Source: Dimargaris cristalligena (lineage: Eukaryota). Taken from it: a DNA stretch of 41,190 bases. The translations under genes were made by a program, and so were the position numbers. The notes below the pieces were generated by a model that had not been told where the DNA came from, searched no databases, and worked only from the letters and a program-made list of their open reading frames with translations. Shown piece after piece: positions 6,945-41,190 of this stretch (within the stretch, counting starts at the first letter, position 1; each line of letters begins with the position of its first letter). The stretch covers positions 1-41,190 of the forward strand of contig ML002330.1 of NCBI GenBank assembly GCA_003614675.1. The letters run 5' to 3'.

Positions 6945-8846
6945 GGTTAATGTGTTGCTGTAAGGGATAGTTATAGGGGGAGGAAAATACGTGAAATACC
7001 GGGAGATTGGCCAATCGTATAGGCTAATGCCAAGAAGACGGGTCCGTGGGACGTGTGATTAGAAAAAAAAACGGCGGAGCGTTAGGGTACCCTTCAATGA
7101 TCGGTATATTAAAGTGGCCTGGAATAGGGGGGGAGGGATGGGCTTGGAGTTAGGGAATATAGGCAGGGAAGTGAGGGCGGTGGCGGATAGCGAGCCTTTT
7201 TATAATGCGTGGTCTCAAAATATAATTGGTGAGTTGGCCCACTGTGGTAGACATGGTACAGATGGGTTCCCTCAACAAGGCCATGGCTACATCTTTGGCC
7301 AATACCACTGGGTTGGTGGCACATTGTAATACATTTCCCCCTCACCCCCTTTTTGTGAGTAACGACGAGAGTGCCCAAGTCATTAATGGGATAATGAATG
7401 CATCGTGCAGCTAAACCACTGGATATTGGGTTTGGCGGGATATTCACGTCCTCCGGTAGTTTCGTTTTCCTGGCCAAATCTTATGTTAGGATGTCCTCTT
7501 AATTGTTTTGCGGAATAGGCCAGGATAATCAACCGAAATACATTGGTCATAGCCGGGTATGGAACAGACAGGGGTTTCAAAGTAATAATGCAGCTCCGAG
7601 GCATAGACATAGGGTCGACAAGTTATTTAAACCATGCTTTCGAAATACGGACACCCCCTCCTCCTCGTCGAAAGATAAGTCGTCCAATTCCGAATAAAAG
7701 GACGGTCCAATTAGATTGAGTCTGACATTCATTTTTATTGGCAGTAGTAACCTAGTAGGACATGCAGATAATTTATTTTAGCTAGACTGTGGGCCCCAGG
7801 GAAGAATATACAGAATTGCGTACGTATAGTTTTGAACTAACGGTAGTGTAGAGTAGAAGGTTTAAGGGCCCCCTCCCATAAAAGGTATGTGGTACGGAAT
7901 TATACCTTCGGTGTATGTGCCTACAAAATACGGAGGGTATAGCCGCGAATCACATCCATTGAAGCGAACGTTGGTGAGGGTGGGCTTCGTCCCAGTTAGT
8001 TGATGTCGTCGGATTAGTAGTGGTGAAGCTTACGGCCGGCCGGAGGGATGTCGAGCAGGTATAGCGACAAAAATTGTGGCGTGTGTGTGGGGGGGGGGAG
8101 GTACACTTAGCTGGCCTAAACTCAGAGGGACTAATTGGCCATGGCGTAGGTTGAAGCTAAGCTTCAATATCGAGAAATAGAGAGGGTCGGGGGTAATGGA
8201 ATTTTCAATCCCGAGGGATAGTAGTGGTATTTTGCACCAAATGGTTACATGGTATCCCTATAAATAAGACCAATGAACTTTAGAGTACTGGCCCCGCCGA
8301 CAGGTGTGTTATATTGCGCTTATCTGTTGCCGCCTGGCTCTCGTCCCCATGGTATCCGTATGATATACGGGGGTTTGCGGCCACTTGTGCCCCCTCCACA
8401 GTAAAGGGTGGTGACGACATAATTGTTGCACTTGCCCCGGGACAGTCAATATAGTGCGCCTAGGGTTTGATTAGTAATGAATGCTGGGAAAAGGGGAAAG
8501 TTATCTGATGGGGGAACTAAATCAAGCCAATGGAAACCACGCCCAGCGTGTTCCCTTCTAAGCATATTATGCGAGGGAAGGGGTTATTTGCCACTTACTT
8601 CTCTTACTTTCTCTCTTTCGGCTACTACTCCCCCTCCCTACCAGTCCCCACTATATTCTTTAATATTTTGTTCCCCCCATTTGTTTCTTTCAGTTCTGTA
8701 TCCGGCCTTGGCTTTTCTGTTTACCGCATCTAGCCCTTAGCCCCGTTGCATTGCGCTATCCCCCTTTCGTTTTCCCCTTCACGTCTGTCCATTATCCCCA
8801 TTACTCGTTTGTTTGTTCGTTTATCCTAGCTTCCATATTACCAACC

Positions 8847-10012
8847 ATGTCCGACGGTGCCGACGCCCTTATCGAGCGGCTCAAGACCGTTAAACACATT
8901 TGGCTCGTTCTCTCGGGTAAAGGTGGGGTAGGCAAGTCCTCCGTCAGTACTCAGTTGGCCCTCTCCCTTTACAATGCCGGCCAGCGCGTGGGGATTCTGG
9001 ACATTGACCTGTGCGGCCCTAGTATTCCCCGCATGCTCGGGGTCGAAAACCAACCGGTACGCCAGGCCTCCTCCGGCTGGGTACCCGTGTACGTCGACCA
9101 GTCCGAACAACGCCTGTGTTGCATGTCCATTGCGTTTTTGCTCGCGAATAAGGACGACTCGGTCGTGTGGCGGGGTCCCAAGAAAAGCGCCATGATTAAA
9201 CAGTTCTTGTCCGACGTTATGTGGGGCGACCTCGACTACCTCATTATTGATACACCACCGGGTAAGTCAATGTTTATTTATTCGGTGCTCGTTGGGAGGG
9301 GTGGGTTATTGGTATTGGTAAGCCTCGTGAGTCAAAACTACCAGCCCCATTTAACCCGCCCCGGTTCTCCCCACCCGGCTTTTCATTAATTTACGCGATA
9401 TCAGCCGACCTTTCCCGTTATTTGCACCCACTCACCCCTCGCATTCCCCCTATTCCTTTATATTCCAAACTACCTTTAGGCACATCCGACGAACATATCT
9501 CCATTGTCGAATTCCTTCGGGCCGTCAACCCCGACGGTGCGGTCCTCGTCACCACCCCCCAGAATGTGGCCTTGGCTGATGTCCGCAAAGAACTCAACTT
9601 CTGCCGCAAAGTACGCCTGCCCATCCTGGGAGTCATTGAAAACATGAGTGGGTACATTTGTCCACACTGTGCCGACTGCACCAACGTATTCTCGTCGGGC
9701 GGTGGCGAAAAAATGGCCGAGGAATTTAACATTCCTTTCCTGGGTCGGGTGCCCATTGATCCTAGTCTTACCCTAATGCTCGAAGCGGGCCAAGCCAATG
9801 ACTTTAACGGCGTGGACGGGGTGACTGAAACAGGCGAACAACAACAACAACAACATTCGTCACCGAATAAGGGACCGGAACGGGAGGCATCTCCTCCTCC
9901 TCTCCCCCAGGTGCCTTCGCTACCCGAGCGGTTCTTGAAATCACAATTAGCACCCGTCTTCGCCGAAATTACACAAAAACTTATTGCCCAGCAACCGAAA
10001 TCATCTGACTAA
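8847..10012 (+). CDS. CFD1: Cytosolic Fe-S cluster assembly factor CFD1/NUBP2 (2 exons: 8847-9261, 9480-10012)
   Basis: [11 protein letters not shown] deviant Walker [19 protein letters not shown], spliced DTPPG|TSDEH across a GTAAGT...TAG intron, [16 protein letters not shown]. It lacks the N-terminal Cys cluster of Nbp35. Confidence 0.92.
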
Positions 10013-11820
10013 ACTGCGGAGCTGGCTACTTTTTTTTTTTAGATAACAAAAATAGGTTTTTACATGTATCCACCATCACCAAAACATTATCCACACTCCA
10101 CTTGAATTTTGGGCCTACTTTATATTCGCTATACCTACATCCTAAACAATGAAAAGTTTATCACTGTAATCCTTCACTTGCATTGCCCTCGTATCCCCAT
10201 AGCAGTGTTTATTCCTTTTGAGTATCTTGTCTTGGGTTTAGAGATTCTGACAAATAAAGTGGAGCGCGCTGTTAGTTTAGTAAAGACCTTGTCTAATAAT
10301 TGGATTGTACCCTTCGGTAATTTAGAAAGACCAGTTAGTTAGACACGGTGGATGCGTCTATTTAATGGCCAATCATCTCCATGTATTAGGGGAGGTGGGC
10401 AATAGAGCTACATTATGCGCTCAAAGCAAATATTATTGACATTGATGGTAGATGCCAACCCAAAACTATTCCCAAATGTATCCCCTATTCCGGTTATACG
10501 ACGCCTGGGGTACAACTAGAGTTGAGTTTCCAATAGTGAGTGGTAGGTATTTGTATTTTAAAGCCTAAATATCGTATTGATGAACGGCTAGACTGGGCTG
10601 AGGTTGTTTTAAATGCCTTTCTGAACCTCATACAGTTCCCCAACTGGAGTTGAATTTGGCGTTCCTATTAATTGCATTAATCCACCAAGATTTACCGATA
10701 CCCACAATCATAACTATTGTAAGCACACATTAGTTGGTCTGTCCCCTCTCCATTTTTAAATAATAATCCAACTCCTCGAATATAGAACTACATTTCCCAT
10801 CCCCCACTTCTGGCTATCTTATTCATTGTTACTAATGTCTCGATTCCCAAAAGTTCTTCTGTTGACCCATTAATTTATAAATAGCCTCTCCCACTTGAGC
10901 CTTATATATCGCCGATATTCCTCTTTTACTAGCTAGGGTCATGATAGGACGACTCAATATTTGGTATAGTAGACTTAGGAATGAGGATGCGGGACTAGGT
11001 TTCCCCTTCAGGATGGTCTGGCGTCTATATAGCGGGCCACCGGCTCACAGGAAGGGAAGGGGTGCTCCACATATCCGAAGGATTGGCCCTAAGAATGATA
11101 AACTACATGCCCGGTGGATACCATCGGAGAATACTAACGAGTGTTGAAGAACACGGAAAATGCCTTTGGAAATAAGGATGATTATTCGGAGAATTAGTAG
11201 TGCTTAAGGATTTATCACTAAATATTCAATAATTTATTTTTCCTTAGTGTAATTTATGTTCATCTTTAATGTATAAAATGGTTACACTGGTGGTATTAGC
11301 CGTTTACATGAACAAACTAATATATTAATAAAATGTGATTGTGCAAAATCCCAGCTATATATCTTGCCTGTGGAAATGTTTGACTACATAGTGCAAAACG
11401 GGGGGAAAACTCACCCCAATGATAAAATTATCTAGTGTTAGTGCCTCTTGAGTATGACAAGGCCACATCCCCCAAGGTAATTAAACCCAGGGACCCCACC
11501 AGATTTGATAGAGGTAGGTTGTCAGCTAAGGTTGCAGATTGAGTCACGCCTAGTCTCTTGATAATAAGTTGTTGAAGAATATATTCCTACATATTCTTTA
11601 TCATGTCCTGTTTCACCCAATTATGTTAGTTTATTCTGCTATTATAAGATCATTTATATTAGCCACTTATGTTTCACCCTATCAAAATTACAGTTCAATA
11701 AAACTAGCCACCTAGAGGCACTTACTGTCCTCTAGCTACTTTTTACCCTTACTTCCAGTTTTATTTTCTTTATATCCTTAGTATTCCAATAACTTTCATC
11801 AGGCAGGGGTAGACCAGTCT

Positions 11821-12532
11821 CCTATAATGTAAATGACCAGTGGCTCAACAAGACTGATGCACAGATGGGAACATTGACCTAGTCAGTATTACAGTATGTG
11901 TAACATGGTTTGTGTGTTGTAAGGAGGTGGAATGGGCTGTTTAGCCACCTGCTTACTCCCAGCTTTGGTCCCAGCTACCATGATACCATGGGCTTCTATG
12001 CTAAATAGTACTTTTATAGTTCTGTGGATAAGCCAAGAGAAGTTTCAGGAGGGGCTGTATTATATCTATTCTTGATTTCAGGCTACGTTAGTGTGCTAGG
12101 TTAAAAACAGTTGGGGTTACAATTGTTATTAGACTGAAGGGTGGTTTATATGGATGTGGGCCACATTTAGAAGGGGTCTATTTTGAAAAATAGTTTTGCT
12201 ATACCTAACCCTATAATGGTAATATCTCTGTATAGGGCTTATAGGAGGGTACCAATAGATGGGTTCCAAGGGTCCAGTGTTTCAATAGAGAGGTGATCTG
12301 GTGACAACCAATGAGCAAACATGCATATTTTGCTTTCAGCAATAGTATAGATTACCCCCATTCCTTCAGCTTTCTTTGCCAGTTCTTTATTTTGATTATA
12401 AATTCCCTCCTGTGTTATTAACAGCAGGATATATCTAAATACCTGTAGTTGTGGTACAGTTAGGGTAATACTATGAGACTTATTTTGATAGTAGCCAATA
12501 GAGTTAACAATATGGGAAAGGTTCAGCCAGAC
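11821..12532 (+). repeat. Dispersed ~700 bp repeat, copy A (CpG-depleted, hypermutated)
   Basis: Colinear with 23511-24260, with shared anchors such as gacctagtc, tttcaggct, aaaaacag, tgtatagggct, gacaaccaa.gagcaaac, ttttgattat, tgtggtacagtt and gagttaacaatatg. Confidence 0.85.
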
Positions 12533-12634
12533 TGTATAATGATAAATCCATTGGATGAGGCAAAAACCACTGGTTAATAATGGATCTCTCATATGTTTTC
12601 CCATGCACATATTATCCAAAACCTTATACATCTA

Positions 12635-13226
12635 CACTGAATTATACATGCTGGCCCTCCTAATCTAACCTAAATCCAGACTTAATGATTGTCCACCCTT
12701 AGTAGGCCTTATAACACCATATTAACCCTCCTATAGTCACCCTCAGTACTATGTAATTGTCATTTATTATATAACCCTTCTCCTTCCGGCCCCAATGCTT
12801 CACAAAAAATCACTCAACCTGCTGATCCAAAGACTCTTCCAGTTCCCATGAGAGTTTTCCAGATATAAAGCCCATCTGGTTGGTCTGTAATATAGTTTAG
12901 TAGTATCTCCCCTTGGGACCTCCCTCTGGAGCTGTCCCTGTGTATATATAACTAGGCCCCATCATAGACTAGTTCAATTCCTTAGCTTATTCATATCCCC
13001 TAGTTTACCTCAATAAACTCTATATACACCTACCCCCCCTTTGTACTAACTAGTAAGTGTGCCTGCTGCACATCCCTTGTATATACCTGCACTTATCCTT
13101 TATTGGGTTAGTACAGTGCCCCATCTTAATGCTAGTAGCCCGCTTTACTGAGTCTAAGCCCTGCCTACTATTAGAAGCCTATCCCTGGGACTCTTGATGG
13201 ACTAAGAGTGGTTAACTTGGGTGACA
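12635..13226 (+). repeat. Left arm of long inverted repeat; LTR-like
   Basis: Reverse-complement match to 18640-19246 along its length; 13165-13212 vs 18654-18701 is 46/48 identical. Contains TATATATAA (12943-12951) and AATAAA (13012-13017), and ends GGGTGACA at 13226. Confidence 0.85.
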
Positions 13227-16200
13227 GTAGCATAATAGTAGTGCTAAATAGTAGATATAAAAGAGTGAGCCAAGTGATTTCAGGGCTCTCTAGGTCTAAT
13301 AAGGGATCAAATATATATACATTCCTACTGCTGAAATACAATTCTGCTAAGGCAAGGGCATAATAGACCTGTGCACTATTAATTAAAAGTAGTGTAGGTT
13401 CAGTTGGGCTCTAGCTGGATATGAATTTCAGACTAATACCAGAGCTACTAGTTTTAGCCATAGTGTATTGGGTAGACTCTGTATTGTAGCTAGTTACAGT
13501 GGTACCACAAGTTAGTATCTTGATTAATTTAGTATTCTTAGAGAAGTGGATTGAGTACTCATCAGGAAAAGTGTTTGGGAGCCATACTGCATGTACCTTA
13601 GTTATTTCTAAACATTGGGTTATCTGTTTAATAGTCCTGGTATATGACTGAACTACTAGGCATATATTAATTTTGATTTCTACTACTAGACATATAAATA
13701 ACTAGATAATGTCTCCCATAAGGGCCATGATAGTTAGCAGGTAACCTAATACTATACTGCTAGTGCATAGTATAAGGGAATCAGCCAGATGGTTGAGCTG
13801 TCTAACTGATAGTATTAGATCATTGCCCTGGTAAACTAAATGGTCTGGATAGTTATGAACAATACTATCCCAAACTTGAGCCAGAGACTGAGAGCTTAGG
13901 ACAGATGAGGGATTGCAAACACTGGGGGTCCAGCCATTAGTTGATAGCTGTACTAATGGGTTACTAAGAGTAAATCAATCAACTGGAGTCTGGGGATCAC
14001 ACACTAATATTTATTCTAGAACTACCTGTATCATTTCCACTAGCTGGGTTATTGCAATCTCTGAGTATACAGTATTAATGTAAGACATTCTGACTTGGAT
14101 AGAGGAGGGCAGGTCCACAAAATTGACAGTTAGAGGATAGTGAGTAAACCCATGGATAATAATATCTGATAGAGCAATTTTGGGGAATTGGCTAGAAACT
14201 AGGTCAGGGAAGTTCTCAAAGCCCAGGAGTGTATGGAAAAGAGGGCCTGTCTAGCCTAATCCATTCCACTGGGAAATATCAGTAAGTTGAGAGTGTTCAA
14301 AAGGAATCATGTCTACTTGGTCCTTATGGAGAGATTGTAGCTATGGCTCAAAAGGAGAACTGTTTAGGCAAACCCTATATGGTACTATATTAGTACAGGG
14401 TCCAATAACTTGGTCTATAGCAGGGATATTTAAATTTTGACCTGATAGAATTATACCAAAAGTCACATCATCCTGGTTAAGTAGCCGGCCAAAAACTACA
14501 GCATAAGCAGCCCGGAATAGGGTTGCTATTGATATACCTAGAGTTTGAGTAGATTGGAGTAATTGGGCTTTAGAAATATTGAGTGGTGTTGAATATGATG
14601 CATAACCAGGTATACCAATATAGTCTGGGTATAACAGAGGGGCTGGTGTAACTATTGCATTGTGTAGGTAGTTGGTCCAAAATACCCATGCTAATGTGGG
14701 ATCTGATTGTTATATATATTTAACTATAGTTGGGAAGCTAGTCTGGGGTGGGGATACAGCCAATTTGGGATTGTGGTAGGCTACTATCCACTCTTGGAGG
14801 AGCAAGGGTAATGACCAGCCATCCATTAATGAGTGGTGGATAGTAATAATGGTATCATGGACTAGATTATCAGTAGTAGGAAATACATGATTGCAAATCA
14901 TATGTTCTTGGAGGGTAAATCCCTGTTGCTGGTTCTTAATAAAAAATGTCTCAAGAGAATCAAGAGGCTGTTCCGCAATAGTCCAGGAAGTAGGTAAGGA
15001 GGATATCACCACTTGGAGGAATCCTTGGGATAAAGTATTGGGTGATTCAAGGAAAAGTGTGCACAGAGGGGAATATTGGTTATCTACAGAGGCCCAGGCC
15101 TGGACCAGTCAATCAGGATCCAGTTGACCAGTTATTTTCATTGCCATTTGGACAAGATATGTTGATGGGTCTGAAGCTAGGTTCATAAGGCCACCCTGGA
15201 CTGCAATACAGGGTAATATATCTTCAACTTGGGCCAAGGGAATACCTCGTTGGTGGATTTGGGCAAGGATATTCTGGAACCCAGTATCAGAAATAGACAG
15301 ATGCAGAAAGTCATATTTAGTGAGAATAGATTCAGGTATCATATTGTCTAACTGTGCACTTATACCAGTAAGCTCAGTCAGATTATGATGCCAACTGGAC
15401 ATAATCTTGATAATACTATCCTTGTAGTAAACCCGGGGGTTATACTCCATAATCAATTGGAGACAGTCACCAACCATTGTAGGCATGGGGTTGAGATCAA
15501 AAATGACAAAGTCCTGAGATGAAAAATTATGTAGTCCAAAGGAATTAGACCATTCAATAGATAGTGGATTACCACTCAGGGGAGTACCTGGGTTGGTAAA
15601 TTGACCAAAGTAATTGAATTGAACATCCATTCTCTTAGGTGTCTTAGCTATCAGTTTACTCCTCTCATCAGTATTGACACCTGGCATGTATTTGATTACT
15701 GAGTAAATGAATCCTTTGCCTGGAATTTTCTGTAAGGCTTCCTTAGTGTACTGTAATAGCTCTAAGAGGGACTGTCCTTGGCGAATTTGGATTACTAAGG
15801 GATAGAGGGAGGTAAACCAACCTACAGTACAAGTGATATTTTGATCAGCAGCCCAGGGTTCCCGACCATGACCCTCCATACAGAATTATATCTGGTTAAC
15901 ACCAATGGTAGTAGAAAAGGCGTGTGCAAATGTGGCCAGTAGTAAATCTTGAAGGGTAACTCGCCATTGGGGGGCTAGCTGGAATAGAAGAGTGTTGGTA
16001 GACTTAGCATCAAAATCCAAAGACACAGAGAGGCGGGCTACAGGGTAATCCTCAATACTGATCTCTGGTGGCGGTAGTAGAGAGTAGATATCGGGGATTG
16101 GGTGGTTGGGATCCATCTGTGTAGGCCAAATGTCTGCGGAGAGAGTACTGCAGTAATCAGCCAATTGGGTAGCCCAGGTTTGGAACGACATTGTCTTTGG

Positions 16201-18639
16201 TGGAAGGGGTTTGCTAAGCAATAGTGAATTTAAATCCTCAATGAGTATCCTCCAGGAAACTAAGTCTACCAGAATATGGTAAATAGTGAAGAAGAATTGG
16301 GTATTGAGTAGGTCAGCTGGGTTGTGGATAAGTGCTGCAGCAACTACTGGGCCAGTAATTAGATTGAGACTCAATTGGACTTCTAGAATAAAGGCCAAAT
16401 AGTCATCAGGGTCCAGGGTATTCTCCAATACCAGAAGATCAGTGTTTGTGGCTATTTTGGTAGGGATTGACTGAGTACATTTCTGTCCATTTTTACCAAG
16501 TTGGAACCTTGCCCAGAGAATATCATGGTGGTTAAATAAGGCAATAAGAGCATCAGTGAGAGTGGATTGGGATAGGGGGAAATAGGGACCAGCCTTGAAA
16601 GAAAATGGTTGGTTGAAATAACAGGGATTTTTAAAGTGAAGATCAGCAAACCAGTGCTGAATGGGGGTGAGAGCTACATCCCCTGTAACTTGGCCCTGGC
16701 AAGAAAAACCAGTGTCCAAAATGGTACTGGTTTCTTGCTGGATGTACAGAACCTGTTGATTTAGTTTAGGGTACTGGTAGATCAAAGGGACAGTAATCTG
16801 GTAACCCAATGGCTGATACTTGGATACAAGTAGAATGGCCAAGATTGAATCTCCACCAATCCTGAAGAAATAGTCCAAAGGTCTAATTTGATCTACAGTC
16901 TTCTGCAGTACCTGGGCCCAGGCCTGTTGGAAGCTGTGTCCAATACTATTCAGTAGTTGATCTTCTAAATCACTTGGGGATGGTTGGTCTAAAAGGTGGT
17001 TGATTGGTGGAAGGGCTTTATGATCTAGGTTGGTTGGGTAGGCATACAGACAAGGGTATCCTGTACTATCTTTACCACACAATTTTTCAGCCCAGTAAAA
17101 CAGCCTACAACATGTTCTATTTCCTTGAGCTCAATGCAAAACTCACACAGTTTAACTTGGTTGTCAATCTGGCCCAGGAATTCAATTATGCCTTTGGGGA
17201 GCCATTGAACATGATTGCCGGTCTAGTAAACTTTCCCAGGACCATGGGGATTATCAATGAACTTAGTGTGGGTTAGTTCGGGTAGGTTTTGGTAACCGCG
17301 GGCAAGACCAATTCCCCCAATAAGCAACTCACCAGGGACACCCACCAGCACCAATTGAAGCTGGCCATCCACCACTAGGTTGGTTGCATTTTGAAGAAGC
17401 CGGCCAATTGATATGTTAGAATTTGGGTCAATGGTAGTTGTATTGCATATCACAGTTGTTTCAATTAGTCCATATTCATTAATTAGGGTACAATGCCTGG
17501 CCCATTGCATATGCAATTCCACTGTAACAGACTCACCACCAACTATAACAGTCTTCAGATTTGGAAATTTAGCAGGATTAAGTTGAGACAAGAATGATGG
17601 GATTATGATGGCTGTATCAATACTCTGTAAGGACTCAACCAAATTTTCAGTAGTAACTACCACAGTGCCCCCAGTACAAAGCCCATGCAGCAGTTCTAAC
17701 ACTAATGCATCGAATGTAATGGACATCATTAGTAGTACTCAGTGGCTTTTGCGATATATATCCATTATGGTCAGGTTTGTGATAAGGTTGGTTACACTTT
17801 GGTGCTCAGTAAGTACTCCCTTGGGATGGCTGGTAGTACCAGAAGTGTAGACAATATAGACAAGGTTTCATTGGGCCAATGGGTGTGGTAGGAAATCAGA
17901 TAGATCTGTGTCTGGTGGCAATATTGTGAAAGGATCAGCCACCAACATGGGAATATGGGATTGAGGTGGTATCCTTCCAAGGGTCGATTCAGTAACAAGT
18001 GCTAATAACATACTACTATCTCCTAGGATATAATTGATATGGTCAACTGGTTATTCTAGGTCTATGGACACATAAGCTGTGCCAAATTTGAGTACCACCA
18101 GTAGAGTAATAATGTAAGTAAATGATTTGGGAATGAGTAGGGCAAACTGAGTCTCAGGCTGGGCACCATGCTGAGTAATGAGAAAACAAGCAAGCTTAGA
18201 ACTGCAATTGTCCAGCTGGCAGTAGGTCCACTCATCAGGACCATGGGTGACTACAATATTATAGGGTACTAATTGAGCCTGGTCACTGAAAATACAGTAT
18301 ACAGGCTTGTCTAAACACTCAATTGGGTCAGTCATGTGGGAGAAGATGATTAGATGTGACCATTCTTGTTTGCTAACCCAGGGAATATCATGGATTAATG
18401 TTGGCAGTTGACTGGGATTTTTCATGTTCTAGGCCTGAACTACCACACCAATAACTGTGCCAAATTGGCTGGAAAACTCCTCTACAGTAGAGGCCTGGTA
18501 GGTATTGCAGGAATAGGTAATATTCAGCATTGAAGAACCACCTGTCAGGCTTAAATCAACTAACAACTTGACTCCCATTGTGGTCAAAAGGAAAAATAGA
18601 AAACCCTCAGCATTAGTATTGGTAAAATGGTTAGAACTT
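13227..18639 (-). pseudogene. Non-ribosomal peptide synthetase fragment, partial C - A - T - E - C - degenerate A
   Basis: A domain: YIVYTSGTTSHPKGV, GGESV, NEYGLIETTV, GELLIGGIGLARGY, Y*TGN, GQIDNQVKLCEFCIEL. T domain: FFRIGGDSI. E domain: PIQHWF, YHILVDLVSW, EGHGRE, TVGWFTSLYP, FNYFGQF. C domain: HHSLMDGWS. Many stops (e.g. 18429, 18051, 17223, 15886, 15109) and a frameshift plus deletion near 17050. No introns seen. Confidence 0.93.
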
Positions 18640-19246
18640 TGTTACCTGGGTTCACCACTCTTAGTCCATCAAGAGTCCCGAGGATAGGCTTCTAATAGTA
18701 GATGGGGCTCAGGTTCAGCCAAGTGGGTCCTAACATTAGGTGGGGGCACAGTACTAACCAATAAAGGTTTAGGTAATTAGTTATATAAGGGACATGCAGT
18801 GGGCACACTTACAGGTCAGTATAAGGGGGGTGAGCATATATAGAGTTTATTGGAGTAAACTAGGGGGGTCAAAATAAGCTGAGGAATTGAACTAGTCCTA
18901 ATGGGGCCTGGTTATATATATATGGGGGGTAACCCCAGAGGGAGGACCCAGGGGAAGAATACTACTAAGACTAAGGTATAGTAAATAAGCTAACCAGACA
19001 GCTGTTAGGACCTGGAAGACTCTGATAATAACTGAAAGAGTCTTTGGATCAGTACTTGAGTGATTAGTGTGAAGAGGTGGAGTCCAGAAGGGGAAAGGCT
19101 ATATGATATAGGATATAGGCTGATCCCATAGTACTGGGGGTAGTCATGGGAAGGTTAATATGGTACCATATGGCCTAATAGGGGTGGGTACTAATGTGTA
19201 TAGATTAAGGCAGATTAGATGATCTGACAATTGTATAATTTTAGTG
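18640..19246 (-). repeat. Right arm of long inverted repeat; LTR-like
   Basis: On the minus strand it shows the same order of TATATATAA, AATAAA and terminal CCAGGTAACA (plus strand tgttacctgg at 18640). The outer boundary is approximate. Confidence 0.85.
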
Positions 19247-20593
19247 GGTTGCTAGTTGGTTAGGCCCTAATATTGATTTTGGGTTGCCTTAAGTGCCAAT
19301 ATATGTGCATACAGTGTGAATAATATTGAGTAATATTATAGAAATATAATCATTTATTGCCAATGGAACTAGTTGGTTAGTGGCAAACACTAAGTCAGTC
19401 CCCGCCACAATATATTGCCCCAGAATTTTGGGGAAATGCATAGGACAGGCAGCACTTGCTTTAGTACCATGGCTTATCTAACTACAACAGGACGGGGTTA
19501 CCTGTATGGGCCTATTTGAGGGCAAATTAGCCTCCCACTTTGATACTTCCACCAGGTCCCCAAATGCCCTTCACGTGATGAACCCATCTTTCTAAATAAA
19601 TGGGTAGCTATTTGACGTCCCTATTTTAATACAACGAATATCTTATCATGAGATTAACATATTGTATTATAAACCCCTGTTATTTAGCGCTTCGGTCTGT
19701 TGGGAATAACAAATTCATGTATTAGTATTACCATGTGAAAAGAACAAGGCTGTTGGAGGTTGGCAGGTATCTCTAGTAGGTTAGCATTATTGAATAATAT
19801 GGTCAACAGTGTATATTTAAATATTAAAATGAATGGCTAGAACCTCTCGATTGATGTCTCTCCCACATGCCTATTAGCTCCCTGCCTCTAGTGCATGTAT
19901 ATCATTATTGATTAGATAATATACCAACAATAAATCGAAGTGAAATGAGACTCCTATCTTTTATTTACTGTTAATATATATATATATATATATTACCTAA
20001 CATGAATGGGCGCAACCTTTATTAAGAAGAACCCAGAAAATATGAATACAAGAGATAGAACCCGTGGTTGAAGGATCTACTAACAGCTTTGGAATTCCTC
20101 TGTTTTATGGATATTCAATCCATTTAAAAAATCATCAACCACTAATTATATATTAACCCATATAGTTGATGGGCTTAGTTATTCTGTAATGGGAGTAGTG
20201 TAGAGTTCAGTAATTAGAGAATGGGTTTTCATTAAGGCCAGTCTTTGTGTACTAGACTGGGTGGAATTCGGCCCAACTGTATAAGGTTTTCAATAATACG
20301 TGTATGGGAAAATAGGCGGGATATTATTTTTCACCCAGCAATCTATGTCCCACACCATCCAATGGATGTGTCGTTTTTTTTAGCCTGGTTGTGAGCCTCT
20401 TCCATGTTAGCTTCCACATTAACTACCGAGCACACCCTTTTCCTTATTTCACCCGCTAAATCCTGCGCGACGCGTTCATGCCTTCCCTCAATTAGCATCT
20501 GGTCACTCCAATCGACTCATTTACTTTATCCATCGTTGAATTTTTAAGCCAACTGCGCTCGCCCAGCACATTATCTAGTCCATCCGTAATACC

Positions 20594-22729
20594 ATGTCGG
20601 CATTTCCCAAGGAAATCATCAAGGTATCTAACCCTTCCCCCTAATGTGCCGCTCCATTAACCATACATCGCTCCTGGGCATCTCATTATGACCCGATTTT
20701 AACAGAGCGAGGTGCCTATTATATTAGACGTCACTCATAAAGGGTATGCCGAAGCGCCCACATTATGGCTAGCTAACGAATATCCAAAGCTGCTGGCATA
20801 TATTATATATAATCAATGAATACCTGGAACACCCCCTTAGAATATATCCGAATCCATCGGTATCCTCAATTTAAAGGATGAAGTAGCCACCGCACTTTCC
20901 CAGGATGTAGAGTACCGAATCTACGAAATTATACAGGTTAGTCGCCTTTCTATTTGTTTGTTGCTTTCGCTATGCATGCGTGATTATCGCCCACCACCAG
21001 CCAACACACCTCGATTTAGTTTCGCGACCCTGCGCCCCCCGCCCATGGGTATCTAAACTAAGATTGTATCTTAATCGGCTATGCCCAAATTACTCATTTC
21101 CCCATCCTAGGAAGCCGCCAAGTTTATGCGGCACTCTAAGCGAACCAAATTACTAACTGAGGATATCGACTATGCTCTCCGGGCCCGAAATGTCGAAGTA
21201 AGTAATGCTTTCCTTTAAAGAATTAGAGTATTTTTATTTAACGTGTATTAATAAATGGCAGGATCACTAGACGGCTCATTGCCTGGCTAGATTATTTAAA
21301 TTTAAGGGGGCCCGAAACAAACCCATGCCCATGTTCTTTTGACTCACTTGCTTTTTTTTTACACATTTTACAACTTCACTATCCCTAGCCCCTATACGGC
21401 CATGGAGCCTTCGGAGAAACCACCTTCAAGAAAGTCAGTGCCCTTGCGGAAGACATTTACGTAGTCGAGGACGAGGAGTTTGATTTTGAAAAACTCTTGA
21501 GCACACCCCTCCCCCCCGCCCCCCGGGACACTTGCTATACAGCCCATTGGCTCGCGGTGGAGGGAGTCCAACCCCTGATTAGACAAAACCCGGCCCCGAA
21601 CCCCGAGTCCACCGAACCGGTTTCCAAGAAACCCCGGGCCGCCACCACCACCATCAACAACAACAACAATGCCCTCCCGGAGGCCAGTGCCCAGAGCTCA
21701 GCTACTGCCACGGTACCGGTGAAGTTGGTACTTTCCAAAGAGCTGCAACTCTACTACGAACGTCTTACCGAGGCCCTGCTGGCGGATAATGATTTACTCC
21801 GCTCTACAGCCCTGGATAGTTTGGCGGTGGACCCGGGGATCCACCAACTGATTCCCTACTTCACCCAATTTATTGCCCACCAAGTGACCCACCACTTAAA
21901 GGACCTGCGCCTGTTAACGACCATGGTCCTCGCGGCCCGGGCCCTCCTGAGTAACCCGCGGGTGTTTATGGAGCCCTACCTACACCAACTGATGCCGGCC
22001 CTACTCACTTGTCTGGTGGGTAAGCGGTTGGGGGGTGGTGGTCCGACCCCAGCATCCGCCACCGTTGACGCTAACCAGATGGACGAGGACACCCCTCACG
22101 AAGCCTCAGCTCTCTCGCATTGGGCCCTGCGGGACACCGCCGCCGAAGTCGTGGCCCGGGTCTGTTTGGACTACGGCCCGGCCTACCATACCCTCCAGCA
22201 GCGGGTCACGCGCACGCTCCTGCGGGCCTTTTTGGATCCCACCAAGCCGTTGGCCACCCACTACGGAGCCCTGGTAGGCCTGACCCGCCTGGGTGCCCCG
22301 GTGGTGAAATTGCTCATCTTACCCAACATTAAGGCTTACTCGGCCCTCCTCCTCGCCCCTTCGGCCAAGGAGGAGCGGCAGAGCGAAGGAGAGGGAGTGG
22401 CTTATCGAGCGCCAATGGCGGGCCCGGGCACGGCTGAGGAACGGGAAAAATGTTGGAATTGTCTGGTGGACGCCGTCGAGTCGATACAGGACGAAGGGGG
22501 AGATACCACTAACCCCACGGGGTCGTCGGCCCCGGCCATGATCTCCGCCACCCAAAATCAACTGCTGGAACAATATTTCGGCCCCGAAATGGCTAGGCGA
22601 CTGGTCGCCCGGCATAGTGCTTGGTCGGCTATTCCGGTGGCGTTGCAGGTGATGCAGAATGGCCCAGTAGGGGGTGGTCCCGCTGCATCGTCGGCGACCG
22701 CACCGCCGCCGGTGGTCAATGGGGTTTGA
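20594..22729 (+). CDS. TAF6: TFIID/SAGA subunit TAF6 (4 exons: 20594-20623, 20841-20936, 21111-21197, 21389-22729)
   Basis: Spliced histone fold MSAFPKEIIK|NISESIGILNLKDEVATALSQDVEYRIYEIIQ|EAAKFMRHSKRTKLLTEDIDYALRARNVE|PLYG, then TAHWLAVEGVQP, LSKELQLYY, DPGIHQLIPYF, EPYLHQLMPALLTCLVGKRL and HWALRD. All introns are GT-AG and keep frame. Confidence 0.95.
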
Positions 22730-23510
22730 GTGCTACAACCCTAGGCGAGGGAAGAAACTGGGCCAGCCCATCCATGCATAATAATAGAAATCAGGCAACT
22801 GCGTAATAAATTCATTGCTATTGTAGGTACCTCGGAAAACACATTGGTACAATCCTCGATTTAATGATGCCCCGGTCTACCTACCTACAGCTGGAATCAC
22901 TCATGTGAAGTACTATAGCAGCATGTGGCCCAGGGTTACATGGGTCGACATAATTCGTTGGTGGGCGTTTTCCTTTTTATACACATATACTAAATTGGCT
23001 GGCGACATGGGCATCATTCCGACCACTTTTGGCAGAACTGCCCCCCTGGTAATAGCCGAATTCGCTGAAGAAAGTATTAGTATAATTGCACCGTATACCC
23101 TTCAACATCCCCCCTTCACACCATCGACTGTAACCCTTGTGGTAGGCTATGGGGCAAAATGTGATTCAAAGGGAACACTGTTAGTGGTATGGCTTCCTGG
23201 CCCAATGGTCTAGATTTGTTGGTGATATTGATCAAGTTAAGCATTATCTACAAAAGGCTTAATCGGTATGGCCCTATGGAGGTGCATTGCTTTTCGGAAT
23301 GGTAGGCGCATTTCAGCATTAGGCTGGAAGTGCTGGGAACATGTGCAGAGGCCAGAAGTAGGACCATTTGAACAAAATCCAAAAAGAAGAAACTGGAAAG
23401 AGTGATACCGAATGGTCCTCGGTCAGAGAAAGCCCCCTTCCACAGCCCTCTATGGACCAACTGCACCATTTTCCGGATGCGTGGAGCACCCAAGGGCCGC
23501 TTAGCCATCA

Positions 23511-24260
23511 CCTATTCGTAATGACAGGTGGTTTAACGAGACGGGTACACAGGTGGCAAAAGTCGACCTAGTCGGTGTTGCCGTATGTCCTACGTAGTTT
23601 GCATGTTGTGAGGGAGCGGAATGGTCGGTTCAGCTCCCCCTGCTCGCTCGCAGCTTGGGGGTCCCGGCAACCGTGATGACATGAGGTTCCATACCCAATG
23701 GGTCTTTTATGGCTCCGTGACTCGGCCAAGAGAGGTTCCACGGGAAAGAATGCAATAGTCACATTAGCCATTTCAGGCTGCGCTAGTGTGCGGGGTCAAA
23801 AACAGCTGGGGCTACAATGGTTGGAGCGAAGGGCGGTTTATATCCCTGGGCGCTGCGTCTTGAAGTGGTCTAGTTTCCAATACAATTATGCGGTGTTTAA
23901 GCTTGTCACTGCATTAGTCCTGTATAGGGCTGACTAGAACTATGCAAGTGGGTGGACTCCAAGGATCTAGTGGTTCAACAGAGAGAGATGTTCGAGCGAC
24001 AACCAACGAGCAAACTTGTGCCCATTTTGTCTCCAGCGGTAGTATAGATAGCCCCCCTTCCCCTCCAGTGTTCTTTGCCGGCTCTCTATTTTGATTATGA
24101 ATTCCCTTTCGCGTTACTAACGGCCGGATATATCCAAACACCCGCGGCTGTGGTACAGTTGGGGCAATACTAAGAGATTTGTTTCGATAGCAGCCAACGG
24201 AGTTAACAATATGTCTTTGGATGACTAGATAATATACTATGGGTTGGTTTAGCAATAGAC
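23511..24260 (+). repeat. Dispersed ~700 bp repeat, copy B (CpG-rich)
   Basis: Direct, colinear homolog of 11821-12532. Frequent 1-2 bp indels between the copies argue against a conserved ORF. Confidence 0.85.
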
Positions 24261-24897
24261 CTCCTCCATTAGGATTAATTCACCCCTAGGAATACAGTTC
24301 TCCCGATGAGACTTACTATTAGCAGTTATATACGGACGCACACCCTATTAGTTTTTGGATATGAATAACCCAGGGTTCATACAAGTATGCCAACCAAGCG
24401 AGTGAATACATCCCCCCTGCTGTCTCGCCTATGATTACACAATGTGTCGAATCGGGTGCTCCATGGAAATAACTCTTCTTTTTTCCGTTGGTAAATAACG
24501 GCAGATGAGTATTAGCCCGGCCTTGGTTGTCATTACCTGAGCCGCCAGCACCAACCCAAATGTAATTCTACGCCCCTCTCCCCTAATAGCTTGTCCTCAC
24601 TAAACCGCGTGGTGGTGGATTACACGTACTACCATCGAGGATGGGTGTCGGTTAAGTTAGAGTGACCCAACCCTACCACGGGCAACTCTTAAGTTCTATT
24701 CCGCTGCATTCTGGCCCGACCGACCACTATCGATTGGGGTGGCCGCCAAGTTTCAGGCCACCCGCCTGGCTATTTGCGGCAGGTACTGCCGTCAACTTAA
24801 CCCGCCCTAGCAGAACATAATTATATCCCCCCACTTGAAGCCCCTACCATCTTCATTGAACAAGCGCATCCCAGCCATACTGTAGACACTGCCCCAC

Positions 24898-24905
24898 TAT
24901 AAAAG
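24898..24905 (+). promoter_or_regulatory. TATA box of the small secreted peptide gene
   Basis: TATAAAAG, 144 bp upstream of the ATG at 25042. Confidence 0.55.
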
Positions 24906-25041
24906 GACCGACGATGCCCGCTCGGTTAACGATAACTCACCTACCAGTCACGATTAGAATCACCCCGCTTTTTACACCCAGCCCTGTCGATCACCAGTGA
25001 ATATCCCAGCATCCCCTACTTCAATACCAGCCATTACTACC

Positions 25042-25314: not shown

Positions 25315-26976
25315 TAAGCATACTAATCATAATAACTAGGTGCCTATACCATTCCTTTTCTTACCAGCCCATAGACCCGTTGGTGACCATCACCCGCATC
25401 TACGAATCCCCCACTTCCCTTTTTGTCGACAAGCCTGGCTTGGTATTTCAATAAAAAGGGCCTTGGTTTACATATGGTTGAACGTTGCATGGGTGATACT
25501 GGGAAACGGTATGTAGTAGGGTTTCGTTCAATTTTTGCTTGATGCCTGGACTTGTCCTGCCGACTGGTGCCGTTCTCACTGGATTGGGACGGTTAAGACT
25601 AGCACGCTCGCTTTCTGTTGTTAATGAGCTAGGTGGCGATTGTGTTTGATTAGTGATCACTATTCCTTTAGCGATTCTCTGTAGTGGTTTGCTATAGTTT
25701 AACACCATTGGGTGTTAATATATATATATATAATAGAAGTATCAGCATCCACTATTTTGCTGGTAAAATAAATCTAGCGGCCCGCTCCGATAAGGCCATC
25801 TCTATTCATAATTATATCGCCGCTTCGCTAGATTTTATCCCAAATAAGCTATGTGAACCTCACGAATTAGGACACTTCAAATTGCCATATCATTCTTTTA
25901 TACGGCTCTATTTATGGTGCAATAGCCCCTAGACCCCTGTCCGGCTTATTACACGCCATAAATATGCATATAAATATATGTAATGGATAAGACACGATCC
26001 ACTCATTATTTCTAATATGCCAGGGCCAGTATATGTAGTCCGTAGTCCCCTTATCACGTTTGCGTTTTGCTGAGTTGATTAACGGTTAAAGTAGCCTAAC
26101 ATCGCATAAAAAAATACCTAAGCTAGAACCAGAAAATAGGCATTATGGTGTCTAATTCTGCGACCCTTTCAGTTAATCTAATCCACCAATATTAATAAAA
26201 ATTCGGGATCATTTACCGAACAAGTAAAAAATAATGGACACTCAGTTCTCCTTCCCACATTATAAAATACGTGTGCGTACGTTCTAGAGTATTTTTTTAT
26301 TCGCACTCCGCTTCCCTAGCCATTTGGCCTTTAGCTATCTCCAATCTCCAGCCCCAAGGACCCACTAGGCCTGTAGTGACACTAAGTGGCAAAGGTAAAA
26401 AAGGGAGGCTGTCTATGGGGATTATGGAAACCGACGGATTCAATCACACGAATTAGGATAGTTGTCAAACCAAATTAAAAACACTCCATGATTGGCAAAA
26501 GGGGCACAAACGACCCGGTTCCCAGGGGAATTGGGGCTAGGGAGGCAAATTAATAGTGTATAATATTAGTTTTCGTCGTAAAAAAAAATTGACGAAAAAA
26601 CGGGGATATAATTACAAGGAAAGTCAAATGAATAATAATATAACACATACCACTAGGAACGCACGTCCATCACTAGATAGGCGTAAAAAGTGTTGAGTGG
26701 GATAACCAGCGGGGTGTGACAATGCATCAATGAGAGAGAGGCCCAAAGGGGGCGTACGCATCGAGTTCCTCGGGAAGAGAAGGCGATACAGGTGGAAACA
26801 GTAATAATACAAGTAGTACGGATATGAGTGGTGATGGAATAAGGTAGCAAGCGGATGTTGTGTTGGGGTGTCTTCCTAAAGCTTTGCTATTTGGGAATAA
26901 TTATTGTGTTTTTCTTCTATTATAAACGTCAGTCACGATGGTAGAAATGGGGTCATTGTTGAAGGTGTGAATTGGT

Positions 26977-36475: not shown

Positions 36476-37867
36476 ATGGTCCAACTAGGCATCAGTCCAA
36501 CCATGGCCGCGGTTATCGCCCAAGCCTACGACCAGCTTGAGCTCAACTCTAAATTACGGAACCAGCTTGAGCCGTATCGCCCCAACCCTACTGGGACGTC
36601 CGAAGCCGATTCAACTCCACAGGCTATTTCCTTCGACCTACTGCGTGAGGCTCTGGTCGTGGTTAATGCCGAGCTGCCTCCGCCAGAACGTAAGTGTCCA
36701 TGCATCGGGCGTTCTGCTCTGCTCGGTATTGGCTGTACTAATTTGCCCAATGACTCGGCTCCGCTTTTTGTACAGCCCATGTAGCTTCGTATACAACTAC
36801 CCGTTTATCTATACCTTCGGAGGTGGAAGTCAGCCTATATATCTCCATATTCATCTTCAAAAACACGCGTACCGCATTTAATTTTATTTTTGCTAGTTAT
36901 TTCCATTATTCACGCATCGTATGTTTATTCTTCTAAACACAGGCCGGCGGCTGGTGAATGTTCTGCGGGGCACCTCAGTATACATTGCTCCCAAAGCCAC
37001 GCCTAAGCGGGTAAGCGATATACATATATGTATTTATATCGGTTGAAAGTAGTGGCAATGCTAGACCTTTTTAACCATGTAAGGGGCCTACATCTATACA
37101 GGTCTTATGCATCGGACAGATGTCCGGGGGCGATGACCCCCTCCTGAAAACCACACCAGCCCTCTCATATATATCTACATTTCCTGCTTTACACAACCCC
37201 CACTCCTCCTACCCCGCTACTACTAGAGCCCCGAATTTGTGGCCCACCTAGAAAGTATCCGGGCCGAGATTGCCCAAAAAGACTACCTTCGTATGGTCAA
37301 CGGTGTCTCCATCAATGAAAAGAATCGGGTTGGTTCAAGCGTAGCCCAGGAATTAAAAACCGTCAACCAAAATCTGATGGTGATTTTTAATATCTTATTT
37401 TCAATGGTGGCTGTCTACGCCTGCATTTACTATACGGCGCGGACAATGACGGACGACATGGGATTGGTAAGTTGTTGTTGGACTTGGGATTCATGCCGAG
37501 CTGAAAACCCCGACTGAATAATATGTATTGCCAAACGAATGGGTGCCCTTAGAATATGGGATATATTGTATCGCTTGATTATCAGTTACCGAGAGTCTTT
37601 TGACAATATTTTATATTATATTGATAGCTATACGTTGGAGGCAAATATTTGATTTTTTTTTACTAAGTGTATTCTGTAACCTAGGGAATATCTAATCAAT
37701 TTTATTACTATTCTTATTGTTATCGTGTTTGATGAAACTAGAGGGTCCTGTTTGGACTGTCGTTCAGTTTCCTAGTTGGGGCTGCCGAGGCATGGCTGTA
37801 CACCAGCAAAATGCATTCGGTGGAACTGGCCGATCAAAAACGAGGTAAACACGAGCTATTCAATTAA
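36476..37867 (+). CDS. VMA12: V-ATPase assembly factor Vma12/Vph2/TMEM199 (4 exons: 36476-36689, 36943-37010, 37227-37466, 37742-37867)
   Basis: LLRGT.vY-type motif (VLRGTSVYIAPK), R|SPEFVAHLESIR...DYLRMV, and two C-terminal TM helices (LMVIFNILFSMVAVYACIYY; RVLFGLSFSFLVGAAEAWLY). Divergent from DPH2. Alternative upstream ATG at 36392. Confidence 0.85.
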
Positions 37868-40149: not shown

Positions 40150-40191
40150 AAAACCGGTTTTTAAATCACGCTTAACCTAAAAACCGGTTTT
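40150..40191. promoter_or_regulatory. Twin 12-bp palindromes AAAACCGGTTTT upstream of the NRPS
   Basis: Perfect copies at 40150-40161 and 40180-40191, 30 bp apart and ~275 bp upstream of ATG 40466. Confidence 0.5.
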
Positions 40192-40465
40192 ATACATTCA
40201 ATAACGGCATCCCATGTAAAATAACAGAGGAACCACTATCAGTTAATGTATCTACCAAAACATTTTTACCTTTATAGCCCAGGTCTAAACCAACATGTTC
40301 GGTATAAAAACCTTCTAAATAGCCTGTCAGTGGGATACAGTGCTTCATAATTATCGAACCCATTATCCTTTGACAAATTCTTACCAGTAATACCCGTTCG
40401 TATTCAACCCAACTTAGTTCCGGGATTTTTGATCCACCGATATACAACAGTTCGTATCGCCAAGT

Positions 40466-41190
40466 ATGTCTCAGTATTCCACCATCCCCACTAGTAGCGT
40501 GACCCAAATTTTCTCCGTACCTGCCGTGTTCCATCCAAAGGTGAAGTTACCTTTAGGCCGGCCCAACCGAGACCTACACGACATTGATACCTACCAGCAC
40601 CAACTTTTATCGGAACCCATCCACCCTTGTCTGGAACTTAACTCCAACAAAGTGGCTAGGGTCAGTCTAGCCATTTTGCTAAGTCGGTATTACAGCCAAT
40701 CGGAGGTGGCGTTTGGCTACACCACTGGACCCCTCAGTGATACTTACTCCGCTGATGCCCCGTTAGTCTGGGCGTTATTTAATGTAGTCCCTGAGGCCGA
40801 GGTTGCGTCGCTGGTTCGCTTCTGCAACGACATAAGTGTTGGCCATTCCGATGGCATTGCTGAATCACCCCCGCCTCCTGAGGTGATCCTGCATTGTAAT
40901 CTGTCCGCTGCATCCAACCTGTCCACCAATAGCACCCCAGCCGGTTCTATCCATTTTACCGACATCATGTCTGAGGGCATTCTATCCACACTCTTGATTA
41001 CGGCGGGAGTCGGGTTGCTGGTTGAGTTAAGTATTCCGAATGGTTCTGCAATGCTGAGTATCACCTATTCCCGAAATGTCTATCCGGACCCCTGCTGTAG
41101 AAGAGTTTGCCAACCAATTTGACACGGTCCTGAGGGCGGTAGCTCGGGCCTGGACCATGAAAGATCCTAATCGACCACCGACATTAGTCC
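40466..41190 (+). CDS. NRPS 5' end (N-terminal partial condensation-like domain) with a +1 frameshift near 41090; runs off the window
   Basis: LPLGRP, LAILLSRYYSQSEVAFG and LSITYSRNVY...VEEFANQF resemble the C-terminal lobe of a C domain. 40944-41190 aligns at DNA level with the minus strand of 18393-18637, which leads directly into an A domain. Confidence 0.8.

Follow-up and report, generated by a model that had tools for sequence, protein, structure and literature searches.

Analysis of a 41,190-nt stretch of Dimargaris cristalligena DNA (assembly GCA_003614675.1, contig ML002330.1, positions 1 to 41,190; hereafter the window) revealed that the region from 12,635 to 19,246 contains a fragment of a non-ribosomal peptide synthetase (NRPS) gene enclosed by two inverted copies of a sequence resembling a long terminal repeat (LTR), which we refer to as the arms. 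The host is a zygomycete-grade, mycoparasitic member of the Kickxellomycotina. Based on the evidence presented below, we conclude with good confidence that the locus is a passive, repeat-bounded relic (the variant in which it was imported from elsewhere included) and the outcome of ordinary transposon-driven gene decay, not a working element. Among the observations behind this conclusion, the enclosed NRPS fragment is a pseudogene, and the arm repeat belongs to a very abundant dispersed family with sharp termini.

Searches with tblastn and Pfam identified NRPS sequence from end to end of the 5.4 kb between the arms (13231..18637, minus strand), as had been proposed in an earlier annotation of the window, hereafter the original prediction. 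Pfam located an AMP-binding domain at 18428-17226, PP-binding and Condensation domains at 17130-15112 and a second Condensation domain at 15108-14344, and the fragment comprises a partial N-terminal region, one adenylation (A), one thiolation (T) and two condensation (C) domains (A-T-C-C), and a tail; the domain order of the paralogs is N-terminal region, A, T, C, C, tail. NRPS protein matches (P0001, P0004, P0005 and P0121) were obtained across the interior from 18620/18623 down to 13231, with residues 110-628 and 671-1791 of P0005 aligning to 18620-17049 and 17031-13681, respectively, and residues 393-1666 of P0004 to 17043-13231. The nearest relative of the pseudogene is P0001 (79% identity, 17405-14605), the other NRPS paralogs being ~50% identical, and the top protein matches came from D. 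cristalligena, followed by Tieghemiomyces. At the nucleotide level, paralog contigs of ~83% identity overlap 14501-15043 and 15464-16249, and a second NRPS in the window (40944-41190, plus strand) matches 18637-18392 at 73%.

A functional NRPS would have its A, T and C domains in a continuous reading frame. The fragment instead carries 14 in-frame stop codons (at 18431, 18053, 17870, 17741, 17225, 15888, 15111, 14712, 14343, 14253, 14013, 13977, 13704 and 13413) and one frame change at ~17031-17049, where a frameshifting deletion of ~110 nt has cost the A domain its end (36-43 residues of the paralogs). Both gene ends are gone as well: compared with the paralogs, approximately 110 codons at the start and at least 266 at the C-terminal end are lacking. 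Between the NRPS homology and the arms lie just 3 nt on the right and 5 nt on the left, and relaxed tblastn searches for the missing parts outside the arms returned only matches with E>1. As no NRPS remnant was detected beyond the arms, the predicted truncation at both junctions holds, as does the expectation that homology to the paralog at 40944 sets in within ~3 bp of the repeat end (18637, 3 nt from the arm).

The regions 12635-13226 and 18640-19246, which the original prediction had described as reverse-complement homologs, were recovered as such. Sensitive self-blastn aligned the left arm (12640..13226, plus strand) in inverted orientation with the right arm (18640..19240, minus strand) at 74.0% identity over 611 columns (E 4.8e-101), and default blastn aligned 12693-13216 with 19187-18650 at 75.5% over 546 columns (E 3e-91). 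This homology is far above chance level and leaves the two arms 26% diverged from each other; a profile built from both arms found just these two copies in the 41-kb window and no third. In a MAFFT alignment, the predicted block with 46 of 48 identical positions was located close to the inner end, and both arms share a TATATATAAC block and a CAATAAAC block before terminating in GGTGACA at 13226 and GGTAACA at 18640, directly after which the similarity breaks off. The proposed succession of TATA, AATAAA and a GTGACA/GTAACA terminus, pointing inward to the NRPS sequence, was seen on both sides. Inspection of the bases next to the termini (GTAGCA on the left, AAGTTC on the right) showed that neither arm is followed by the TGG start of a primer-binding site (PBS), and a search for shared 5-mers in the 12-nt flanks yielded no target-site duplication (TSD) of at least 5 nt around either arm or the arm pair under any boundary choice, including pair boundaries at 12513/20408 and 12640/19240; both absences agree with the original prediction.

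The wider distribution of the arm repeat was assessed using public sequencing runs. Five runs contain the stretch, four of which (X1, X2, X4 and X5, from two studies) were used in the form of Logan contigs; these were placed on 9001-25000 at a likeness of at least 80%, giving 3101 (X1), 4368 (X2), 3735 (X4) and 4889 (X5) contigs on this 16-kb stretch. The summed contig depth reached 57,000-115,000 in the arm bins versus 55-1,900 in flanking single-copy bins. This depth does not represent a copy number but does indicate a very abundant family, and the identity classes of the contigs, which derive from short unitigs, were left unused for judging which arm is nearer to other copies. The counts of loose ends and joints refer to the matches listed, which are the best-supported ones, with a further 2264 loose-end rows and 253 joints existing. 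Among these listed matches, the alignment ends at 13226 in 55 (X2), 56 (X4) and 53 (X5) contigs and at 18640 in 35 (X1), 41 (X2), 42 (X4) and 43 (X5) contigs. The loose ends beyond both positions comprise at least 255 letters of unrelated, AT-rich sequence, with a consensus agreement of 0.39-0.41 at 13226 and 0.41-0.43 at 18640. As the contigs leave the match at these two positions for unrelated AT-rich DNA, the ends facing the NRPS fragment are true element termini. The outer start proved to be equally sharp, with 19 contigs showing diverse flanks before 12510 (X2, among the matches listed), and together with the sharp inner ends this identifies each arm as a complete stand-alone unit and not as the inner edge of a terminal inverted repeat (TIR).

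Unique contigs also span both arm-NRPS junctions (13197-14303 and 17283-18673 in one study, 13200-14303 and 17317-18673 in the second), reaching 30-33 nt past the junctions in runs of two studies, one of which may include the source of the window itself. A second copy of these junctions did not appear among the matches listed, and an exact scan of public metagenome contigs for a 26-nt conserved block of the arm gave 0 matches. Inverted joints between the arms within single contigs were also encountered; we attribute them to cross-mapping or chimeras instead of a real arrangement.

Both arms and the pseudogene are part of a sharply delimited block from 11548 to 19402 (7,855 bp), in which only 26 CpG dinucleotides were observed against 322 expected (observed-to-expected ratio, o/e, 0.08). 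CpG is dense up to 11399, almost gone until 19403, and, to either side of the block, reaches an o/e of 0.82 over the remainder of the window. Besides the arms (0.08 on the left and 0.04 on the right) and the pseudogene (0.10), the block takes in non-coding repeat material that abuts the left arm (11598..12514, plus strand, o/e 0.04, stops in all frames) and includes a repeat here named B (~11820-12514, o/e 0.04), as well as a short segment C described below. A diverged, non-coding homolog of B, B-prime (23520..24213, plus strand, GC content 0.51), served as internal control; self-blastn aligned 11832-12514 with 23520-24213 in direct orientation at 71.6% over 697 nt. Outside the block, values of 0.79 for B-prime, 0.72 for the second NRPS and 0.78-1.03 for neighbouring genes were obtained, and intergenic controls as AT-rich as the block gave 0.92 (37500-40400) and 0.90 (25500-26900).

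The substitution pattern is directional. At 18 of the 29 arginine positions of P0001 the pseudogene differs, and at 16 of these 18 it encodes glutamine, cysteine, histidine, tryptophan or a stop, which are the products of CGN to CAN/TGN changes; the reverse case, arginine in the pseudogene and another residue in P0001, occurs at 3 positions only. Likewise, B has kept a single one of the 35 aligned CpGs of B-prime, 23 of which are TG, CA or TA, and the C-to-T changes per site from B-prime to B amount to 0.39 for CpG, 0.33 for CpA, 0.20 for CpT and 0.14 for CpC, compared with 0-0.14 in the reverse direction. Classical dinucleotide indices for repeat-induced point mutation (RIP), computed per kb, were not RIP-like. 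A count of TG/CA-discordant dinucleotides between the arms, aimed at dating the CpG decay relative to the split of the arms, gave 8, versus 7 in the control pair. Judged from its sequence composition, the block fits long-term cytosine methylation and deamination of what would be a silenced island of repeats together with the pseudogene. In the literature, we found no description of the arm repeat or of CpG-depleted islands in D. cristalligena, nor of RIP in Dimargaris.

Several features make it probable that the arm repeat is an LTR, either solo or belonging to a truncated element. The characteristic TG...CA ends are present, with CA at 13226 and, in reverse complement, at 18640, and with TG at one of two candidate starts: 12513, if segment C (12510..12639, plus strand), which is contiguous with the left arm and constitutes either the 5' part of the unit or a separate repeat piece, is counted in, or 12638, if the unit consists of the arm only. 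The former choice results in a unit of 717 nt (C plus arm), and the right copy has TA at the position matching TG 12638. TATA-like and AATAAA blocks lie 5' of the 3' end of the arm, the copy number is high, coding capacity is absent from the repeat, and dispersed copies stand beside unrelated sequence at both unit ends (13226, 18640 and 12510, among the matches listed). A TSD of 4-6 nt was detected for neither arm at either boundary in the shared 5-mer test. A separate observation concerns one contig each in X1 and X5, in which an arm-like 3' end (13224) is followed by 37 other letters and then by 11694-like sequence onward. This joint hints at an arrangement of LTR and internal region elsewhere, and at this single locus there is a hint that 11.6-12.6 kb, repeat B included, could be the internal region of a larger element with the left arm as its 3' LTR; a search for a remnant of the 5' LTR at 11400-11830 against the arms returned weak local scores of 26-30 only.

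Further repeat sequence lies outside the arms on both sides. An inverted homolog of segment C, C-prime (20258..20408, minus strand), was aligned by self-blastn (12509-12643 versus 20408-20265, 65%, E 1e-8), and its order and orientation relative to the arm are the same as on the left. C-prime is not CpG-depleted (4 CpG, o/e 0.58), and before 20258 diverse flanks are found in 19-23 contigs among the matches listed. The spacer that separates it from the right arm (19241..20257; GC content 0.36, CpG o/e 0.33) contains no Pfam domain in six frames, shows single-copy contig depth in the bin 19681-20214 and has similar motifs of 9-12 nt (GAATTATAC-like) on both sides of its ~1 kb. It may represent an insertion into the 717-nt unit or, alternatively, sequence lost from other copies by microhomology deletion. 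On the left, contig depth is raised from ~11137, and one unique contig stops at 11598. As for B-prime, which lies downstream of the gene TAF6, no extra contigs were placed on it at a likeness of at least 80%.

To account for these findings, we propose that two separate copies of the LTR-like repeat (~0.6-0.7 kb) would have inserted into an NRPS paralog in opposite orientations, the 3' terminus of each abutting NRPS sequence. The outer gene parts, namely approximately the first 110 codons together with the promoter and at least 266 C-terminal codons, would then have been lost or swapped through recombination with breakpoints in or at the repeats, be it unequal or ectopic LTR-LTR recombination or illegitimate deletion. 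The block of repeats and pseudogene would subsequently have been silenced, presumably by CpG methylation, and may in this state have lost more than 90% of its CpGs to TpG/CpA and gathered its 14 stop codons. Recombination with such breakpoints would explain both why the NRPS homology stops 3-5 nt from the termini and why neither arm has a TSD; according to an excerpt of PMC7251063, unequal homologous recombination between LTRs of different elements yields LTRs without TSDs. The scenario corresponds to the fallback offered in the original prediction, two independent solo-LTR insertions with flanking deletions. From that proposal, the discreteness of the arms as units across the genome is borne out by the contigs, whereas we infer that the repeat is an LTR, that recombination truncated the gene, in which order the events took place, and that methylation caused the CpG loss.

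A number of observations weigh against this reading. The LTR identity of the repeat, although probable, is unproven: neither a PBS, a polypurine tract (PPT), gag-pol nor a full-length element was seen for the arms within the window, and no purine-rich tract lies upstream of either candidate start (12513 and 12638). Inward-facing 3' ends on both arms combined with a gene cut at both junctions require at least two rearrangements, and the missing TSDs could merely reflect the age of arms that are 26% diverged. The co-linearity of C and C-prime is awkward for two fully independent insertions. It could be reconciled if C plus arm is the canonical unit and the right copy gained ~1 kb of single-copy DNA, which leaves unexplained why C-prime keeps 4 CpG and the neighbouring right arm has 1 in 601 nt. 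Finally, a minority of repeat copies may lie beside NRPS sequence elsewhere, the contigs considered being the best-supported matches only.

The leading proposal of the original prediction, a cargo-carrying element that moves NRPS modules, finds no support and appears very unlikely. Spelled out, it would be a single active or once-active element of composite, foldback, Pack-MULE-like or DIRS-like type, with the two arms as its inverted ends, that captured a set of NRPS modules and moved it as a unit between the neighbouring genes CFD1 and TAF6. For a TIR- or DIRS-type vehicle, one would expect the family termini on the outside, a pair that is surrounded by a TSD or at least cleanly delimited, and a gene for mobility. 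The conserved family termini of the arms are instead their inner ends, beyond which 35-56 contigs per run (among the matches listed) continue into unrelated AT-rich DNA, and the outer start near 12510 is also a family boundary, so that the arms stand alone. No TSD surrounds the pair at 12513/20408 or 12640/19240, the arms share only 74% identity, the supposed cargo is a defunct gene with 14 stops and a frameshift, and a second copy of the junctions is absent among the matches listed. Moreover, no recombinase, transposase or reverse transcriptase (RT) lies in or beside the unit: six-frame Pfam searches of 9900-13231 and 18641-21390 returned the TAF6 domain only, the rest of the window being scanned as selected open reading frames (ORFs), and an autonomous partner encoding gag-pol, a tyrosine recombinase or a DDE transposase, which had been suggested as a check, was not found in the six-frame search of the flanks. 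The attraction of the vehicle lies in the 5.4 kb of pure NRPS sequence held between inverted arms and cut exactly at both arm ends, in the lack of a TSD, as expected of tyrosine-recombinase elements, and in the host, in whose subphylum DIRS elements occur (excerpt of PMC3783388) and whose 27 NRPS genes, formed by repeated duplication and mostly alone on short contigs, would fit flanking repeats (excerpt of PMC6784888). A broader idea is that the arm repeat recurrently brackets NRPS genes and acts as recombination handle or composite vehicle behind their expansion to ~27, the present locus being a silenced fossil of module shuffling; this seems improbable to us, albeit less so than the single cargo element. 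The excerpt of PMC6784888 describes 27 NRPS genes with two lineage-specific expansions, a modular synteny suggestive of repeated duplication, and NRPS genes that mostly lie alone on short contigs (21 NRPS and 7 NRPS-like genes are counted in an excerpt of PMC7466969). Such isolated genes, as well as the end of our window inside an NRPS gene, are compatible with repeats flanking many of them.

Three further explanations concern the way in which arms and gene came together. An origin of the arrangement as assembly or amplification chimera has a negligible probability: repeats do break the contig graphs at both arms, and some inverted arm-arm joints occur in single contigs, but unique contigs cross both junctions by 30-33 nt in runs of two studies (one possibly the source of the window), which shows that the arrangement is not an assembly artefact. 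About as improbable as the cargo element is a single local inverted duplication, in which C plus arm was copied in inverted orientation by a palindromic rearrangement that truncated the NRPS gene and left the arms as sisters. This would account for the homology of C and C-prime, which lie beyond the arms with matching order and orientation; yet C plus arm acts like a family unit that begins sharply at 12510 (19 contigs, among the matches listed), so that such co-linearity is expected of any two copies, and the arms, at 26% divergence, are no closer than expected for random family members. The ~1 kb of single-copy DNA between C-prime and the right arm and the CpGs retained in C-prime and lost from the arm are further arguments against it. 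More plausible than any of these, although still unlikely, is passive import, in which the complete arm-NRPS-arm segment would derive from a different NRPS locus and have arrived through homologous recombination or gene conversion involving dispersed repeat copies. As a sub-variant of our preferred explanation, from which it differs in where the gene died, its share is already contained in the confidence expressed for the relic as a whole. The identity to P0001 (79%) and to the paralog contigs (~83% at the DNA level) compared with ~50% for other paralogs indicates a fairly recent duplication and favours import, as do the lack of any trace of the missing NRPS ends in the 1.6 kb and 1-1.5 kb of unique DNA outside the repeats and the position of the fragment between two housekeeping genes. 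Against this, the second NRPS lies only 22 kb away, which makes such genes native to the area and decay on the spot just as simple. A donor locus sharing the junctions did not turn up among the matches listed, and the double crossover requires repeat copies already present at the target.

The relic resides in the 10.8-kb interval between two genes on the plus strand, which also holds the repeats. To the left lies a gene for a CFD1/NBP35-type P-loop NTPase (8664..10009; Pfam ParA, PF10609), and to the right TAF6 (20840..22726), in which a TAF histone-fold domain, beginning near 20840 in six-frame Pfam searches, is followed by TAF6_C; the ORF with the latter domain (446 aa, 21389-22726) is 100% identical to the D. 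cristalligena protein P0122. Scans of the window for tRNAs, Rfam families and tandem repeats gave no match. The second NRPS gene, recognized by tblastn and self-blastn, is represented by its start only (40466..41190, plus strand) and leaves the window at its end. Over this range it looks intact, with normal CpG content, at a distance of ~22 kb from the pseudogene. A full-length protein for it was not found in the searched range of 402-2000 aa, the sole match being partial (P0121, 55%). The AT-rich region upstream of this gene contains a small inverted repeat (38523-38594 and 38773-38844, 71% over 73 nt, E 7e-4) and a 42-nt imperfect palindrome (40150-40191). With regard to the NRPS family of the pseudogene, the nearest relatives that the protein search returned outside the Dimargaritales are not other fungal NRPSs but cyanobacterial ones (Microcoleus, Nostoc and Fischerella, ~30-33% identity), which could hint at an old horizontal origin or reflect database composition.

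Taken as a pseudogene cut at transposon borders within a silenced repeat island, the locus would represent ordinary genome decay. Its description nevertheless adds a high-copy LTR-like family, not described before, for a mycoparasitic zygomycete that has received little study, and provides a clean example, for the Kickxellomycotina, of a sharply bounded CpG-depleted block that takes in a host gene copy without affecting intergenic DNA of high AT content, the diverged copy of a repeat or an NRPS paralog. The locus also offers a testable lead on the origin of the unusual NRPS expansion in D. cristalligena; should the repeat turn out to accompany NRPS paralogs systematically, transposon-mediated recombination would be linked to the diversification of secondary metabolism outside the Dikarya.

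Among known systems, Pack-MULE, foldback and composite elements resemble the locus in having inverted repeats of several hundred nt around a host gene fragment. In contrast to these, the strongest family termini are the inner ends instead of outer ends with a TSD, no TSD of 9-11 nt and no transposase partner was seen, and the 26%-diverged arms are stand-alone units. The CpG-depleted block recalls methylated repeat islands and RIP-like decay in fungi, as the CpG loss is limited to the repeats and the enclosed pseudogene and the C-to-T excess is directional; it differs in that the RIP indices are not RIP-like and that B-prime and the paralogous NRPS escape. DIRS elements share the inverted repeats around ~5 kb, the lack of a TSD and a host lineage known to carry them (excerpt of PMC3783388), whereas the interior at our locus holds NRPS Pfam domains only, with neither gag, RT/RNase H nor a tyrosine recombinase, no internal complementary region was found in it, and the arm repeat is mostly present as isolated units flanked by varied sequence at either end. 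With Starships, the locus has in common the general idea of a fungal mobile element carrying metabolic genes. Starships, which have been reported from Pezizomycotina, range in size from tens to hundreds of kb and possess a 'captain' gene for a tyrosine recombinase, whereas the 6.6-kb unit has no coding capacity other than NRPS and no captain was detected in it or, by six-frame Pfam, in its flanks. The closest likeness is to solo or truncated LTRs bounding a gene remnant. While no full-length element, PBS, PPT or gag-pol is linked to the arm repeat, its 5' boundary is ambiguous (12513 or 12638) and 1 kb of unique DNA separates the right copy from its putative 5' part, the likeness extends to the unit of ~0.6-0.7 kb with TG...CA ends, the TATA-like and AATAAA blocks before the 3' end, the high copy number and dispersal with family-wide sharp ends, a gene cut exactly at the repeat termini, and the absence of a TSD, as described for recombinant LTRs in the excerpt of PMC7251063.

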